Assembly (NCBI GenBank): GCA_049644665.1
Contig: JBARSI010000155.1
Location: 4,888-68,887 of the forward strand
DNA: 64,000 nucleotides
Origin: Anaerolineales bacterium
GTDB lineage: Bacteria > Chloroflexota > Anaerolineae > Anaerolineales > E44-bin32
Direction of reading: 5' to 3'
Shown: positions 37,357 to 44,140 of the stretch, piece by piece
Layout of the letters: each line of letters opens with the position of its first letter
Numbering within the stretch: position 1 is the first letter of the stretch
Made by a program: the position numbers and the translations under genes
The notes under the pieces: model-generated
What the model was told of the DNA's origin: nothing
Databases searched by the model: none
The model's input: the letters and a program-made list of their open reading frames with translations, nothing else

Positions 37357-38367
37357 ATGAGTGATTCGTTAATAACACTGTTAATTGGACTTGGCATGCT
37401 ATCTATCGGCCTGTGGTTTCTTTGGCCGGAGGACGGTCTTTTTGCGCGCTGGCAGCGGGGGCGAAAGATGAACGCCCGCATCCGCCGCGAGGACGCATTG
37501 AAACACATCCACAGCTGTGATATGGGCGGATCACCGGCATCGATCCAGAGCATTGCCGGCGCATTAGGAGTCCACCTCAACGAGGCGTTAGCTACACTAT
37601 CTGAGCTTGAAGCGCATAATTTGGCACTTATAAGCAACGGCGGTATCCGCTTGACGCCCGCAGGTCGTGAGTCGGCGCTGTATATTTTACGGGCACATCG
37701 CATGTGGGAGCGATACCTGGCAGATGAGACTGGATACAGCGAACAGGAATGGCATGATATCGCCGAGCGTTATGAACACGAACTGACACCCTCTGAGGTT
37801 GAAGCGCTCTCAGCGCGCTTGGGGTATCCCACACATGATCCACACGGGGACCCCATACCCGCGGCAGATGGTGAGATTGTCCATCATGGTGGTGAGCCGC
37901 TCACCGCAGCCGAGGTTGATGTCCCCCTGCGCATCGTACACCTTGAGGATGAGCCGGACGTGGTCTACGCTCAGCTCGTCGCCGAAGGGTTGCACCCAGG
38001 CATGATTCTGCGTCTCGTCGAACGAACGCCCGAGCGGCTGCGCTTCTGGGCCGGGGGTGACGAACACACCCTGGCTCCAGTGGTCGCGGCGAATATCTCT
38101 GTCTTGGCTCTTGCCATGGCGGAGGCTGAGGAACCCGTCGGCAAGCCGTTGAGCCACTTACAGTCCGGCGAATCAGCTGTTGTCCTATCGATTTCACCGG
38201 CAAGTCGTGGTCTGGATCGTCAACGGTTGCTCGACTTGGGCCTGTTGCCGGGAACCAAAGTGGGCGTCGAGTTGGTTGGTCCGGGTGGAGATCCGAAAGC
38301 CTACCGGATACGAGGAGCGCTGATCGCTCTGCGACAAGACCAGGCCAATCGCATATTGGTTGAATGA
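37357..38367 (+). CDS. DtxR-family regulator (Mn-type ligand set) with an N-terminal hydrophobic helix, an SH3-like domain and a terminal FeoA domain
   Basis: LITLLIGLGMLSIGLWFLW is followed by RWQRGRK. The ligand strings are REDALKHIH, RAHRMWERYL and WHDIAERYEHELT. C-terminal FeoA string: SGESAVVLSISPASRGLDRQRLLDLGLLPGTKVGVELVGPGGDPKAYRIRGALIALRQDQANRILV. Confidence 0.75.
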   Translation: MSDSLITLLIGLGMLSIGLWFLWPEDGLFARWQRGRKMNARIRREDALKHIHSCDMGGSPASIQSIAGALGVHLNEALATLSELEAHNLALISNGGIRLTPAGRESALYILRAHRMWERYLADETGYSEQEWHDIAERYEHELTPSEVEALSARLGYPTHDPHGDPIPAADGEIVHHGGEPLTAAEVDVPLRIVHLEDEPDVVYAQLVAEGLHPGMILRLVERTPERLRFWAGGDEHTLAPVVAANISVLALAMAEAEEPVGKPLSHLQSGESAVVLSISPASRGLDRQRLLDLGLLPGTKVGVELVGPGGDPKAYRIRGALIALRQDQANRILVE

Positions 38368-38379
38368 GGAGTGAGTGGG

Positions 38380-39222
38380 ATGGTAGATAAGAAAAAGAAT
38401 GCTCCGCTGGACGAATGTGCAAGCTGCCCAGTACATAATGCTGCAAACCTATTGAAGCTGGGTGTCGACATGCAGGATTGGGATTATGTCGTCGCACTGG
38501 CGGGTAATCCCAATACCGGAAAAAGTACCGTGTTTAATGCCCTCACAGGTCTACACCAGCACACAGGCAATTGGCCTGGGAAGACTGTCACCCGGGCCGA
38601 AGGTGGCTTTGAGTACGCCGATCGGCGCTTTAAATTAGTGGACCTTCCCGGCACATATTCGCTGTTATCGATCTCGCTCGATGAGGAGATCGCCCGGGAT
38701 TTCATCCTCTTTGGTCAACCGGACGTCACCGTGGTGGTTGTGGACGCAACTCGATTGGAGCGGAATCTGAACCTGGTGATCCAGGTATTGGAGATTACCG
38801 ATCGGGCTGTCATCTGTCTGAATTTAATGGACGAGGCTCACCGCCACGGGTTGGTGGTGGATGAACGCAGCCTTTCACGCGATCTGGGTGTTCCTGTTGT
38901 GCCCACATCGGCGCGTTATGACAAGGGACTGGATGAATTGGTTGCAACGATTAGTAACGTCGCTTCCGGTAAGTTCGCATACCGTCCGCACAGAATCCAG
39001 GCAGTCTCGCGCGCGCTGGAAAGCTCTATCAAGACCCTAACCAAAGAAGTGAGAACGGTCTACCCGGATCTACCAAATCCCCGTTGGGTGGCGATGCGCC
39101 TCCTCGATGGAGATGAACGAATCATCGAGGCAATAATCAAGGGCGAATTGGGTGACCTGAGACAAGCGGACGATGAAATCTCGGGCGCGGACATGGGGCA
39201 GATGCAGGAGGCAGTTTCGTGA
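38380..39222 (+). CDS. FeoB-paralogue GTPase domain plus part of the helical domain, as a stand-alone ORF
   Basis: Contains [13 protein letters not shown] and NLMD. GAGGAG lies 8 nt upstream of ATG 38380. Ends in a GTGA overlap with the next ORF. Confidence 0.8.
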
Positions 39223-40658
39223 GCGGGAAGCGAGCGGCATCTCCCGAGAAACTCTTGAAGTCTGCCCAGGCACTCCGCTGGGAGGTGGGCAGCAACGTGC
39301 ATGAGGCGCTCACCGAGGCCATATACACTGACGCGGCGAGCATTGCCGATCGAGCCGTGAGACGCTCTGATGTGAGTCCGAAGTTTGATCTCGATCGGAC
39401 GATTGACAAGATCGTGACTCACCGGTTCTGGGGATTCCCGGTCATGATCCTGCTCTTCGCTCTCGTCTTCTGGATCACCATCACCGGGGCGAATGTTCCC
39501 TCTGGTTGGCTCGCCTCTCTGCTGCTTGGAAAAGGGCATCCCTGGTTGTCGGAAGTCGCCTTGTTGCTAGGCTTCCCGCTCTGGTTGAAAGGGCTGCTGA
39601 TTGACGGGATGTACCTTGCAACAGCCTGGGTTATTAGCGTGATGCTGCCACCGATGGCGATCTTCTTCCCGCTTTTCACCCTATTAGAGGACTTCGGGTA
39701 CTTGCCGCGCGTTGCTTTCAACTTGGATAACGCTTTTAAGAAATCCGGCGCTCATGGCAAACAGGCGCTCAGCATGATGATGGGCTTCGGCTGCAACGCC
39801 GCCGGTGTGATCGCAACGCGCATAATCGATAGTCCGCGCGAAAGGCTCATCGCCATCATCACCAATAACTTCGCACTCTGCAACGGCCGATGGCCGACCC
39901 AGATCCTTTTAGCGACGATCTTTATCGGCGCCCTGGTTCCCGCTCAACTCGCAGGGATCATCTCCTCCCTCGCGGTAGTTGGGATAGCCGTTTTGGGAGT
40001 CTTATTAACTTTCCTTGCCAACTTGATACTCTCGCGCACGATGCTCCGCGGGCAGCCATCCAGTTTCAGCATGGAACTTCCGCCATATCGGCCGCCGCGA
40101 ATCTTGCAGACGATCTATACCTCGCTCATAGATCGAACAATCTATGTGCTTTGGCGGGCAATCGTGTTTGCGATGCCGGCGGGCGCTGTAATCTGGTTGA
40201 GCGCGAATATCACCGTCAGTGGAGTGACACTAGCCGAGCACCTCGTTCGCTTCCTCAACCCCGCGGGCATCCTCTTAGGATTGAATGGGGTGATTTTACT
40301 GGCTTATGTCGTTGCCATCCCGGCGAATGAAATCGTCATTCCAACGATCTTGATGTTGACTGTTTTGATGACCGGCGCTTCGGGTTTTGATGCTGGGGAA
40401 GGGGTTATGTTTGAGCTTGACTCGAATGCGAGTACTTTGGCCCTGCTTCAGGCAGGAGGTTGGACATTGCTGACGGCGGTAAATTTGATGTTGTTCAGCC
40501 TGGTGCACAACCCCTGCAGTACGACAATCTACACGATCTATAAAGAAACCGGAAGTTTGAAATGGACCACCGTGGCGACGATTATGCCCGTTATATTAGG
40601 TGTTCTGATGACATTCTTTGTGGCTCAGATATGGCGGGTTGTGGCTGGTTTTCTGTGA
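39219..40658 (+). CDS. FeoB-paralogue membrane domain
   Basis: Contains [15 protein letters not shown] and [12 protein letters not shown]. About 10 helices. Confidence 0.8.
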
Positions 40659-40736
40659 TCGTATCTACGACGTGGTTGTTTGTGCCACATGTTAGTTGAC
40701 CGATCCCGAATCAGAGCGGACGAGCGGAGTTAGATT

Positions 40737-41411
40737 ATGCGCGAACAGCTAACGCATGCACACGAGGACTATCTTAAGGCCATCTATAAGTTATCGGCCA
40801 TAGGCGGGCGAGCCACGACGACGGAGCTTGCCAAGCTATTAAACGTCACCCCAGCCTCGGTCACCGGAATGGTACAGAGACTGGCGAGCGACGATCCCTC
40901 TTGGGTCGATTATCAGAAACACCGTGGGGTCTCGCTAACTCCGCAAGGAGAACGTGCGGCGCTGGAGATCATCCGCCATCATCGTTTGATAGAGATGTTC
41001 TTGCATGAGATCCTTGGTTACCCATGGGAAGAAGTACATGATGAAGCGGAACGACTGGAGCATGTGATCTCTGAGAAATTTGAGGAGCGGATCGCCAAGG
41101 TATTGGGTGACCCCACTCACGACCCTCATGGGGACCCCATCCCCACGCGCGATCTAAAAATCCCTCCAGCATGTGATATGCGCTTGAGTGATTTGCGCCC
41201 GGATCAACAGGCAATGGTCATGAGGGTGCACGATTCAGACTCTGATTTTCTACGACACCTTGCCGGGTTGGGACTGAAGCCGGAGACGAAGCTATCAATT
41301 CTGGAGCATTCCCCTTTCGACGATAACCTGAAGATTCAAGTCAACGGTCAGCCTGAGCCGATAATACTGGGGAGAAAGATCACACAGCAAGTTTTTGTAG
41401 ATATCATCTAG
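40737..41411 (+). CDS. DtxR/MntR-family repressor with an SH3/FeoA-like C-terminal domain (Mn-type ligand set)
   Basis: Contains HEDYLKAIYKLS (Asp at the DtxR M10 position), RHHRLIEMFL and VHDEAERLEHVIS (Glu at the C102 position). Confidence 0.8.
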   Translation: MREQLTHAHEDYLKAIYKLSAIGGRATTTELAKLLNVTPASVTGMVQRLASDDPSWVDYQKHRGVSLTPQGERAALEIIRHHRLIEMFLHEILGYPWEEVHDEAERLEHVISEKFEERIAKVLGDPTHDPHGDPIPTRDLKIPPACDMRLSDLRPDQQAMVMRVHDSDSDFLRHLAGLGLKPETKLSILEHSPFDDNLKIQVNGQPEPIILGRKITQQVFVDII

Positions 41412-41534
41412 CCACTTTGAATGCAGCCCATTCCAGTAAAACCTTATACGGGACGCTTTGGTCGAGGATCATTGGAAAAACAATCCTGTGGAGCGTCTCT
41501 TTTGTCGGTGCGTCACCCCGAGGAATAGTTTGTG

Positions 41535-41540
41535 TATAAT
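41535..41540 (+). promoter_or_regulatory. TATAAT box 8 nt upstream of the helicase ATG (leaderless-type)
   Basis: The sequence reads tgtgTATAATcccaaacgATG. No SD is present. Confidence 0.4.
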
Positions 41541-41548
41541 CCCAAACG

Positions 41549-44080
41549 ATGCCCATAGAAGAAGCGCTGGAACGGCTAAGGCTTGACCCAGTATTTATGA
41601 AGAATGTCTCAGCATGGGAGCGGATCACTGCTCGGCCAGCTCGCTATGCAGAATTCCCTCCGCAGGTATCTTCACGGCTGATCGACGCCTTGCGGCGCAA
41701 GGATATGGCGCCGCTATATTCGCACCAGGCTGCGGCCGTAGAGGCAGCCCTGAGGGGAGAGAATGTTGTAGTTGTTACTGGTACAGCATCCGGCAAGACG
41801 CTTTGCTACAACCTGCCGGTGCTGCATACACTGCTTTCTGACCCAGAAGCGCGCGGCCTATATCTCTTTCCTACGAAAGCACTCTCTCAGGATCAATCGG
41901 CTGGCCTAAATAGTTTCCTCGAGGCGCTGAACGCTGCCGAGCAGATCCCGGTACGGACCTATGATGGCGACACCCCGCGCGCGCGCCGCCGGGCCATACG
42001 CGATGACGTCCGCATCTTAATCACAAACCCCGACATGCTCCATGCGGGTATCTTGCCTCACCACCCGCGCTGGGCGGCATTGTTCGAGAATCTGCGCTGG
42101 GTCGTGCTCGATGAGCTGCACGTTTACAGGGGCATCTTCGGATCGAACGTCGCCAATCTCCTGCGGCGCTTGCGCCGAGTGTGTAGGTTCTACAAATCAG
42201 ACCCGACATTCATCCTCACCTCTGCCACCATCGCCAACCCGAAGGAACTGGCCGAACGCCTGATTGAATCGCCGGTGACCCTGGTGTCGCAGGACATGGA
42301 CGGCTCACCGCGGGCCGAGAAGCACGTGGTGATCTATAACCCGCCGGTCATTGATCCGGCGTTAGGGATTCGCCGGGCGTATACTCTTGAATCAACGCGT
42401 GTTGCCGAGTTGTTTCTTAAGGAAAAGGTACAGACAGTGGTGTTTGCTCGGGCGCGCATGACCACCGAGGTACTCCTTGGATATTTGCGCGATTCGTACG
42501 AACTGATGAATGGCGACCCAATTGCGATACGCGGCTATCGGGGCGGGTATCTACCGCTCGAACGCAGAGAAATTGAAAGAGGGCTGCGGAGTGGTGAGGT
42601 TCTCGGTGTGGTCGCGACGAACGCATTGGAGTTAGGCGTCGACATCGGTCAATTAGGCGCTGCCGTAATCGCCGGCTACCCGGGCACGATAGCCAGCCTT
42701 TGGCAGCAGGTGGGGCGCGCAGGCCGGCGCAGCGAGGTGTCGGCCGCGGTGCTGATCGCCTCGGCTGCCCCGCTCGATCAATTCGTAGCCACTCACCCGT
42801 TCTACTTATTTGAACGCTCGCCGGAAATGGGGTTGATCAATCCAGACAACCTGGCGATCCTGCTGCGCCATTTGCGCTGTGCTGCCTTCGAACTGCCCTT
42901 TGAAGTCGACGAGAGGTTCGGTTCTGTAGAAGACGTATCGGTGCTTCTTGATTTTCTGGCCGATGAAGGCGACCTGCATCGGTCGAATGGGAGCTATCAC
43001 TGGGTGGCTGACACCTATCCAGCAGAAGGAGTTTCACTGCGCGCAAGCAGCGATGAGACCGTGGTGATCCAGGATGTGGGCGGCGGACGACCGACTGTGA
43101 TCGGAGAGGTGGATTCTGCGACAGCCCCGATTCTGCTCCACGAGGGGGCAGTTTATATTCATGAAGGACGGACCTACCTCGTAAGAAACCTTGAGTGGGA
43201 CAAGGCCATCGCCGCGGTTGAGCCAGCCCAGCTTGACTACTACACGGATGCATCGGAGACAGTCGACCTAGAAGTGCTCAAAGTGTATGAGGCCGATGAA
43301 AATACGCCTGCAAGCCGTGCCCATGGCTGGGTGCGCGTCACGGCTCAGACCGTCTCCTATCGAAAAATCAAACGCTATACTCATGAGACTCTCGGGTATG
43401 GCGTAATTGATTTGCCGCCGCGCGAGTTTGAGACCAGTGCTTATTGGATGTGGATTGCGCCGGAGATGGTCGAGCAGATGGAGGCGGAAGGCGTACTGCT
43501 CCCGCCTCAGGATTATGGTCCCAGTTGGGCGAGCGCCCGTAAAGCTGCTCGTACAAGAGACAGCTTTCACTGTCGGCAGTGTAATGCACCGGAACGCGAG
43601 GCGAGGGCACATGACGTCCACCACATCCGGGCATTCCGCGAGTTCAATTTCATCCCCGGTGAAAATCAAAATGACCGCCTGGCGAATCAAATAGACAACC
43701 TGATCACGCTCTGTTCGCTCTGTCATCAAAGAGCCGAATCTGCGCGCGGCAAGCGCAGCGCGTTAGGTGGGTTAGCCTACGCCATTCGTAATATTGCACC
43801 GCTCTACCTGATGTGCGATCCGCGCGATCTGGGAGCACTTACGTCGGTGCGCGATAAACAGACCAGAGCGCCGACAATAACGCTCTACGATCGGATTCCG
43901 GAAGGACTTGGGTTGGCGGAGCGGCTTTATGAAATGCACGACGAATTGCTGGCCGGCGCACTCGATCTTGTGCGGGGCTGCCGTTGTCAGGATGGCTGCC
44001 CGGCTTGTGTGGGGCCGGTCGCTCCAGGCGGCGGAGAGGTGAAGGTCCTGACAGCTAGATTGCTGGATGCATTGCTCTAG
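41549..44080 (+). CDS. YprA/MrfA-type DEAD/DEAH-box helicase with a C-terminal Zn-binding DUF1998 domain and an inserted HNH nuclease motif
   Basis: Walker A is GTASGKT and the DEAD box reads VLDELH. Helicase_C string: GGYLPLERREIERGL. HNH string: CRQC..HDVHHI..DNLITLCSLCHQ. C-terminal DUF1998 string: YLMCDPRDLG..LYD..PEGLGL..GCRCQDGCPACVGP. Confidence 0.85.
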   Translation: MPIEEALERLRLDPVFMKNVSAWERITARPARYAEFPPQVSSRLIDALRRKDMAPLYSHQAAAVEAALRGENVVVVTGTASGKTLCYNLPVLHTLLSDPEARGLYLFPTKALSQDQSAGLNSFLEALNAAEQIPVRTYDGDTPRARRRAIRDDVRILITNPDMLHAGILPHHPRWAALFENLRWVVLDELHVYRGIFGSNVANLLRRLRRVCRFYKSDPTFILTSATIANPKELAERLIESPVTLVSQDMDGSPRAEKHVVIYNPPVIDPALGIRRAYTLESTRVAELFLKEKVQTVVFARARMTTEVLLGYLRDSYELMNGDPIAIRGYRGGYLPLERREIERGLRSGEVLGVVATNALELGVDIGQLGAAVIAGYPGTIASLWQQVGRAGRRSEVSAAVLIASAAPLDQFVATHPFYLFERSPEMGLINPDNLAILLRHLRCAAFELPFEVDERFGSVEDVSVLLDFLADEGDLHRSNGSYHWVADTYPAEGVSLRASSDETVVIQDVGGGRPTVIGEVDSATAPILLHEGAVYIHEGRTYLVRNLEWDKAIAAVEPAQLDYYTDASETVDLEVLKVYEADENTPASRAHGWVRVTAQTVSYRKIKRYTHETLGYGVIDLPPREFETSAYWMWIAPEMVEQMEAEGVLLPPQDYGPSWASARKAARTRDSFHCRQCNAPEREARAHDVHHIRAFREFNFIPGENQNDRLANQIDNLITLCSLCHQRAESARGKRSALGGLAYAIRNIAPLYLMCDPRDLGALTSVRDKQTRAPTITLYDRIPEGLGLAERLYEMHDELLAGALDLVRGCRCQDGCPACVGPVAPGGGEVKVLTARLLDALL

Positions 44081-44108: not shown

Positions 44109-44140
44109 GAACCCTCTGCATCCCAGCAGAGGGCTCTTTT
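44109..44140 (+). terminator. Intrinsic terminator of the helicase gene
   Basis: Hairpin gaaccctctgc-atccca-gcagagggctc followed by ttttcg. Confidence 0.65.

Follow-up and report, generated by a model that had tools for sequence, protein, structure and literature searches.

In Bacillus subtilis, the helicase MrfA (YprA) and the exonuclease MrfB constitute a second route of excision repair, which is independent of UvrABC and from whose published model the cutting enzyme is missing (10.1101/426304; PMC11194089). Their role in repair of mitomycin C adducts, also UvrABC-independent, is a phenotype known only for B. subtilis; the model includes no incision nuclease, and MrfB prefers linear DNA, with slight activity on nicked plasmid (10.1101/426304). 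MrfB was modelled at the winged helix (WH)/3'-exit side of MrfA, and "Any other unknown partners" are still sought (PMC11194089). In MrfA itself, the entry funnel for single-stranded DNA (ssDNA) is formed by RecA2, OB, CON and MZB; the last of these turns like a "drum", and a path between MZB and RecA2 was proposed for the displaced strand (PMC7797055). Here we describe an MrfA/YprA-family superfamily 2 (SF2) helicase with an embedded HNH domain, encoded in 64,000 nucleotides of DNA from an Anaerolineales bacterium (Chloroflexota; GenBank assembly GCA_049644665.1, contig JBARSI010000155.1, positions 4,888 to 68,887), a stretch referred to below as the window. On balance, we favour its interpretation as a repair helicase with an endonuclease (nickase) in cis, complementing the MrfB exonuclease in a nick-unwind-degrade scheme.

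The gene is complete, spans positions 41549..44080 on the + strand and codes for 843 amino acids (aa), as determined from the list of open reading frames (ORFs) and translation and supported by phmmer and Foldseek. Among PDB sequences, that of B. subtilis YprA/MrfA is the closest relative (6znp; phmmer E 3e-226, 756 bits). Comparison of the AlphaFold2 (AF2) model with the same structure by Foldseek gave E 2.7e-73 at 41% identity. All defining features of the YprA/MrfA (DUF1998) family that were tested are present, namely the SF2 core, the C-terminal MZB with four cysteines (Cys4) and collinearity that includes WH, OB and CON. A first-pass annotation had named the protein a YprA/MrfA-type helicase, and Pfam domains together with the 6znp match bear this out. 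The best NCBIfam match, TIGR03817 (DECH_helic), reaches 656.3 bits, which is below its cutoff of 874.1, and ends at residue 651, before HNH. Judged by sequence similarity and genomic context, the window protein is a member of the repair branch of YprA/MrfA.

Alignment with MrfA by phmmer falls into two blocks: residues 12-637 correspond to MrfA 13-633 and residues 738-839 to MrfA 647-747. At the CON-MZB junction, about 100 residues of the query thus face 13 residues in MrfA, in agreement with the first-pass annotation, according to which the B. subtilis protein has no such insert. The break in this alignment delimits a stretch without counterpart in B. subtilis MrfA, residues 638-737 (43460..43759, + strand). 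The first helix after CON is also found in a YprA protein without HNH, P0234, and the gap in that protein narrows the insertion to a core of residues ~662-735. The G+C content of the region 638-737 is 57.7%, compared with 57.9% for the whole gene.

The insert contains an HNH (beta-beta-alpha-Me) core at residues 675-729 (43571..43735, + strand), which was delimited by Pfam match, conservation and predicted fold and comprises C675/C678/C722/C725, H691-H692, N713, N717 and H726. In a search of Pfam-A with the full protein, PF01844 matches residues 675-729 with 29.7 bits against a gathering cutoff of 21.4 (E 7e-7); with the C-terminal fragment the score rises to 32.7 bits. This profile check agrees with the first-pass description of HNH as an extra domain just before MZB. 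The peptide quoted in that description, FHCRQCNAPEREARAHDVHHIRAFREF...NQIDNLITLCSLCHQRAE, is located where it was said to be, encoded from 43565 (first base of F673) to 43738 (E730) in the + strand ORF 41549-44080; its numbering as residues ~673-726 was in error and should read 673-730. Cysteines of the HNH domain are separate from those of MZB, which are C811/C813/C817/C820. Taken with the PF01844 match, these two distinct Cys4 sites dispose of the objection that the Cys/His residues merely represent the ordinary DUF1998 zinc site.

In the AF2 model, strands at 689-692 and 718-721 are followed by a helix at 723-735, and a beta-beta-alpha-metal fold of the insert is predicted on this basis. 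When the domain was modelled separately (predicted local distance difference test, pLDDT, 78), almost all Foldseek matches were HNH nucleases (Cap5, GVE2, Cas5-HNH, McrA, ZRANB3, IscB). Their probabilities reach 1.0 at weak E-values of 0.04-1, and we take them as support only. A profile of the insert finds the HNH proteins of phage GVE2 (5h0m, E 3.7e-5) and IscB (E 1e-3) and, weakly, that of ZRANB3 (E 0.77). In all three, the catalytic histidine of the D-H motif aligns with H692. Profile, motif and predicted fold confirm that HNH is a genuine extra domain with its own zinc site. Judged from its sequence, the endonuclease is apparently active.

Distribution of this architecture was examined at the level of proteins and of DNA. 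When residues 600-843 were compared by phmmer with 1.84 billion cluster representatives (clusters at 50% identity), 87 matches were obtained at E <= 1e-30, nearly all of them single contiguous alignments through the insert. The arrangement CxxC...[D/H]VHH...AN...NLxTLCxxCH is present just N-terminal to the MZB cysteines in 79 of the best 150 cluster representatives. Four top matches that seemed to be devoid of HNH (P0121, P0165, P0180, P0194) do contain the domain, but in a frameshifted translation, and were not regarded as degenerate. At the level of DNA, GTDB species represented by one genome each were scanned with a hand-built degenerate pattern covering the region from the HNH C-terminus to the MZB start, and at least 120 loci were detected. 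All 120 listed loci encode YprA-like proteins that align contiguously through HNH, at 38-77% identity. The great majority (114) are labelled as Chloroflexota of the Anaerolineae type: Anaerolineales, Caldilineales, Ardenticatenales/Promineifilaceae, Thermoflexales and Brachytrichaceae. Among them are the complete Leptolinea sp. HRD-7 genome and a metagenome-assembled genome (MAG) of Anaerolinea thermophila. Frameshifts in or near the HNH region were also noted at loci L016, L046, L063, L090 and L116, many of the frameshifted cases being from long-read MAGs; these are probably assembly errors, the alternative being pseudogenisation.

Neighbour-joining brought members of each family-level taxon together and placed the window protein in a small clade beside that of Anaerolineaceae. 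From the lineage-wide distribution and this grouping of taxa it follows that the insert is an old and mainly vertically inherited trait of the Anaerolineae-type lineage. The remaining six labels are Cloacimonadota (four), Sulfomarinibacteraceae of Acidobacteriota (one) and "uncultured bacterium" (one). The genes on MAG contigs of other phyla (L032, L097, L098 and L103 with the Cloacimonadota label, L087 with the Sulfomarinibacteraceae label) are carried by contigs of up to 204 kb, and L097 and L103 nest within the Anaerolineaceae clade. They could stem from horizontal transfer between co-resident taxa of anaerobic digesters, or could be the result of mis-binning or mislabelling.

Conservation was estimated on 87 full-length sequences, each from a different species. 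C675, C678, H691, H692 and A712, which lie outside the DNA search pattern, are invariant in 87/87 sequences, and N713 is either N or H (His in 9/87). N717, C722, C725 and H726 are invariant as well, although they are part of the pattern. Twenty diverse members at 31-48% identity gave a similar picture. In their alignment C675, C678, V690, H691, H692, A712, N717, L718, C722, C725 and H726 do not vary, and all 20 match PF01844 (best E 1.7e-11). The domain is also present in all of the best 120 homologues (73-91% identity; the named ones are Anaerolineales/Chloroflexota MAGs). Since the 120 best homologues and 20/20 diverse members match and residues outside the pattern are invariant, the HNH match is not due to chance. 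The window protein itself deviates at A695 (43631-43633), an alanine in the HHxxPF motif where 86/87 aligned relatives have proline.

An insert of this kind might be the relic of a selfish element that a surface loop has tolerated, such as a homing endonuclease of HNH type or a degenerate intein. HNH domains are indeed frequent in homing endonucleases, and the closest solved relative in sequence is the phage HNH protein 5h0m. Nevertheless, no Hint/intein or other mobile-element domain was found in Pfam-A at E <= 1, the insertion point is identical in all members and the insert matches the host gene in G+C content. It is also as well conserved as the domains on either side: across the 87 sequences, identity to the protein from the window averages 0.44 for the insert, 0.46 for MZB and 0.38 for OB+CON. 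Moreover, occurrence is lineage-wide instead of sporadic, the insert being present in the best 120 homologues as well as in all 120 listed loci. A selfish origin is therefore largely refuted, and we regard it as extremely improbable.

Another possibility is that the domain is catalytically silent. It would then bind DNA or sense lesions as a zinc-finger module, or would brace the MZB "drum" structurally. Small zinc-binding inserts are common in the OB-CON-DUF1998 region of other YprA branches (PMC12458937). The Cys4 zinc finger is present in our protein, and one cluster representative, P0157, retains the domain without H691 and H726. Inactivated HNH domains, however, usually lose catalytic or ligand residues. 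Here no variation is seen at H692, H691, N717 and H726, and position 713 is occupied by N or H, in the 87 species and 20 diverse representatives alike. We thus consider a silent domain rather improbable and return to a nicking endonuclease as the preferred interpretation.

Clustering of ORFs neighbouring the 120 listed loci revealed a single conserved partner, a protein of ~410 aa encoded directly downstream on the same strand in 25 loci (median gap 26 bp). This partner is a MrfB homologue, as documented by RNase_H_2 (135.6 bits, Pfam), a weak TPR match, similarity to PDB 8un9 "Exonuclease MrfB" (E 9e-36) and visible DEDDh motifs. Enough downstream sequence for assessment was available for 96 of the listed loci, and an intact mrfB homologue immediately follows the HNH-bearing gene in 23 of them, one being that of the complete Leptolinea sp. 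HRD-7 genome. These operons mostly belong to the Anaerolineaceae clade. By identity to the window protein they account for 17/30 loci at 35-45% and 6/44 at 45-50%, and a search for MrfB homologues retrieved only Anaerolineaceae-type operonic copies. In one such locus (L124 3465-9978; GCA_040767985.1, JAXGNO010000013.1), a MAG of the Anaerolineae type, mrfA(HNH) overlaps mrfB by 8 nucleotides (nt); yebC, ruvC, a SpoU methylase gene and ruvA come next on the same strand and complete a compact DNA-repair/recombination cluster.

Because HNH and intact mrfB occur together as an operon, HNH was not selected as a replacement for MrfB. The logic implied in the first-pass annotation, by which the domain stands in for the exonuclease, is not supported. 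Likewise, the anticorrelation between HNH and mrfB that had been anticipated across taxa breaks down at the level of gene adjacency, given the co-occurrence in 23/96 assessable loci. Endonuclease and 3'-5' exonuclease are chemically complementary and not redundant, which fits this co-occurrence.

As to the mechanism, we infer helicase polarity, position of HNH with respect to DNA, nicking activity and order of events as follows. In an ancestor of Anaerolineae-type Chloroflexota, a housekeeping repair helicase would have gained an HNH endonuclease domain, stabilised by zinc, where CON meets MZB. The SF2 core would load on ssDNA and translocate in the 3'->5' direction, as MrfA does. Since the insertion point is on that side of the enzyme where, in MrfA, RecA2/OB/CON/MZB make up the funnel for entering DNA, HNH may be placed near the fork, at the junction of single strand and duplex ahead of the motor. 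There it could act as a strand-nicking endonuclease, with H692 as putative general base, H691, H726 and N717 around the catalytic metal and Cys4 holding a structural zinc. It might make the entry nick, or might cut when the helicase stalls at a lesion. MrfB, where present, would digest the unwound strand from its 3' end at the opposite (exit) face, and helicase, HNH and MrfB together would represent a nick-unwind-degrade excision machine. More speculatively, the embedded HNH is possibly the incision nuclease absent so far from excision repair of the MrfAB type, in which case a single Anaerolineae polypeptide would both cut and unwind, cutting would be triggered by a lesion and MrfB would then remove the strand; we put this forward only tentatively.

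Several observations weigh against this mechanism. As the first-pass annotation had noted, no mrfB-like gene adjoins the helicase gene, and none was detected elsewhere in the 64-kb window by tblastn (best E 0.04) or annotation of neighbours. None of the 22 listed loci at 50% identity or more, which represent the window's own clade, has adjacent mrfB. Given these 22 loci and the 64-kb window without mrfB, a machine with three activities may not be applicable to the window organism. The full-length AF2 model has a pLDDT of 72.8, is poor in WH/OB/CON (32-57) and was not used to place HNH, whose position relative to the DNA path we infer from the insertion point only. Specificity for mitomycin C adducts is a property of B. 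subtilis MrfAB and need not extend to an Anaerolineae enzyme. Finally, P0157 (855 aa) has VYH for VHH and CxxCY for CxxCH, that is, tyrosine at positions 691 and 726, and keeps the domain and four cysteines. No other intact member with such a degraded signature was seen, and P0157 documents that the domain can persist without full metal ligation.

The lack of mrfB in this clade is also the best argument for HNH-MrfA working alone in organisms without mrfB, with HNH substituting in cis for the exonuclease. Two syntenic relatives, with helicases 91% and 76% identical, likewise have no mrfB within +/-10 kb of the helicase gene. This explanation can hold just for the window's sub-clade, though, in view of the mrfB operons at 23 of the assessable loci. 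An endonuclease is, besides, no chemical replacement for a processive 3'-5' exonuclease, and mrfB could be situated elsewhere in the genome of the window organism. We therefore regard substitution as unlikely and retain the view that HNH complements MrfB.

The first-pass annotation had also considered a stand-alone defence enzyme. Such an anti-phage or anti-plasmid helicase-nuclease would be akin to the YprA defence branch (DISARM, Druantia, Dpd, ARMADA), and PADLOC models do match the helicase core. They match nothing but the core, however, with 141 bits at most as compared with 756 bits to MrfA. No defence genes were found nearby, neither DrmB, DrmC and methylase, nor DruA-D/H, nor partners from a Dpd cluster, and no defence helicase model matches over its full length. 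Neighbouring genes are devoted to other functions. On the 5' side, there are two DtxR/FeoA-type regulators and a split feoB; on the 3' side, a convergent formate/nitrite transporter gene (focA) is followed by eamA, lipA and metabolic genes. This gene order, iron-uptake cluster included, is shared by relatives at 91% and 76% helicase identity (L121-L123). Taxonomic distribution is coherent, and other relatives adjoin mrfB and ruvCA. The helicase gene thus occupies a conserved housekeeping locus and not a defence island. A defence function is very unlikely, and a repair helicase with nickase in cis is preferred here too.

The iron-uptake cluster directly upstream (37357-41411) comprises a DtxR-C/FeoA fusion, feoB split into a GTPase ORF of 283 aa and a membrane ORF of 479 aa, and a second complete DtxR-type repressor with FeoA domain. 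In the 76%-identity relatives, an AlkZ-like gene (PF06224, a family of interstrand-crosslink DNA glycosylases) is located ~8 kb downstream of the helicase gene (L122/L123, 20530-21795); the window has no such gene at the equivalent position. L121-L123 carry an Exo_endo_phos (PF03372) gene ~5-6 kb upstream of the helicase gene.

Remaining domains of the protein, all encoded on the + strand, are arranged as in MrfA. The RecA1/DEAD domain covers residues 58-233 (41720..42247; PF00270, E 2.9e-31) and contains Walker A GTASGKT (K83) and motif II DELH (188-191), both invariant among aligned relatives (alignment A1). It is followed by RecA2/Helicase_C at residues 290-394 (42416..42730; PF00271, E 1.4e-12) and by a winged helix of HRQ1/MrfA type (WHD_HRQ1) at residues 430-499 (42836..43045; PF22982, E 7.7e-9). 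OB fold and CON connector take up residues ~501-637 (43049..43459), as derived from the alignment with MrfA, contiguous to its residue 633, and from the MrfA domain limits in PMC7797055. Beyond the insert, the MZB/DUF1998 zinc-binding domain extends over residues 742-821 (43772..44011; PF09369, E 7e-22) and was aligned to MrfA 647-747. Its Cys4 site (43979-44008) has the form CxCxxGCPxC at residues 811-820, which is kept in relatives. ORFs of 88-153 codons in other frames overlap the HNH region at 43268-43729 (-), 43368-43634 (-) and 43407-43694 (+). Since the homology-supported helicase frame explains the region, they were taken as spurious ORFs of GC-rich DNA.

Sequences flanking the gene were inspected for expression signals. 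A TATAAT hexamer (41535-41540) ends 8 nt 5' of the helicase ATG (both within 41531-41551); the consensus scan did not call it, and no Shine-Dalgarno-like sequence lies between the two. Such a position without Shine-Dalgarno suggests a leaderless transcript or one with a very short leader. No LexA-type box (GAAC-N4-GTTC) was seen upstream of the gene. At the other end, a terminator-like GC-rich hairpin (44109..44136), which scores on both strands, lies 29 nt past the stop codon. It was detected by consensus scan only, and with 5 such sites in the region against 2.6 expected it is weak evidence; it would fit a monocistronic transcript that ends between convergent genes.

Full-text searches for MrfA, YprA or DUF1998 in combination with HNH retrieved no paper describing the HNH-bearing architecture; the mentions of HNH that were found concern Zorya ZorE or titles of references. 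In a survey of the YprA family from 2025, nucleases are treated in connection with the defence branches and MrfB in connection with the repair branch, and HNH occurs only in a reference title (PMC12458937). The architecture is already visible in automatic Pfam annotation, and what is new is its recognition and interpretation. HNH-MrfA, retained with its mrfB operon in many species, is a concrete candidate for the incision step of MrfAB, and it offers a compact, predicted helicase-coupled nickase for study. It also adds acquisition of a nuclease by the repair branch to a family in which the discussion of nuclease fusions has until now concerned defence systems (PMC12458937). If HNH is the incision nuclease, a UvrABC-independent excision machine could be built of two proteins, and the kind of partner that B. 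subtilis MrfAB must recruit in trans would be indicated. Should HNH prove to lack activity or relevance, what is left is a domain insertion specific to one lineage and modest in interest.

Among known systems, B. subtilis MrfA (6znp/6znq/6zns) resembles the window protein most: both share the domain order NTR-RecA1-RecA2-WH-OB-CON-MZB, the zinc site of four cysteines and ~41% identity, and pairing with mrfB in an operon is seen for many relatives of the window gene. The two differ in the junction, where 13 residues of MrfA face ~100 that hold HNH with a second Cys4, and in the lack of adjacent mrfB in the window. In this last respect the window gene is similar to Mycobacterium smegmatis SftH and other TIGR03817 "YprA only" helicases, single YprA-family genes without adjoining mrfB; SftH, as cited in PMC12458937, is described only as a 3'-5' helicase, without nuclease. 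YprA helicases of the defence branch (DISARM DrmA/B/C, Druantia DruE, Dpd, ARMADA) have the YprA core with OB-CON-DUF1998 in common with our protein, often along with small zinc inserts and associated nucleases (PMC12458937). Their nucleases, however, are of PLD, PD-(D/E)xK and other types and are C-terminal or encoded downstream.

As for the insert, small zinc-finger HNH nucleases (GVE2 5h0m, IscB/Cas9-type, Cap5, McrA, Cas5-HNH) share with it the CxxC...[D/H]H...N...NLxxLCxxCH arrangement and the beta-beta-alpha-Me fold, but they are free-standing or joined to other partners, none being inside a YprA helicase. The human SNF2 annealing helicase ZRANB3 (5mkw) combines an ATP-driven DNA translocase with HNH in cis and is among both profile and fold matches. 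Its HNH nicks fork-like DNA in an ATP-dependent manner. ZRANB3 differs in having an SNF2 motor instead of YprA, in the C-terminal position of HNH instead of one between domains, in its eukaryotic origin and in the weakness of the match. We therefore see in it the nearest functional analogy, a fusion of motor and HNH, and not a relative.

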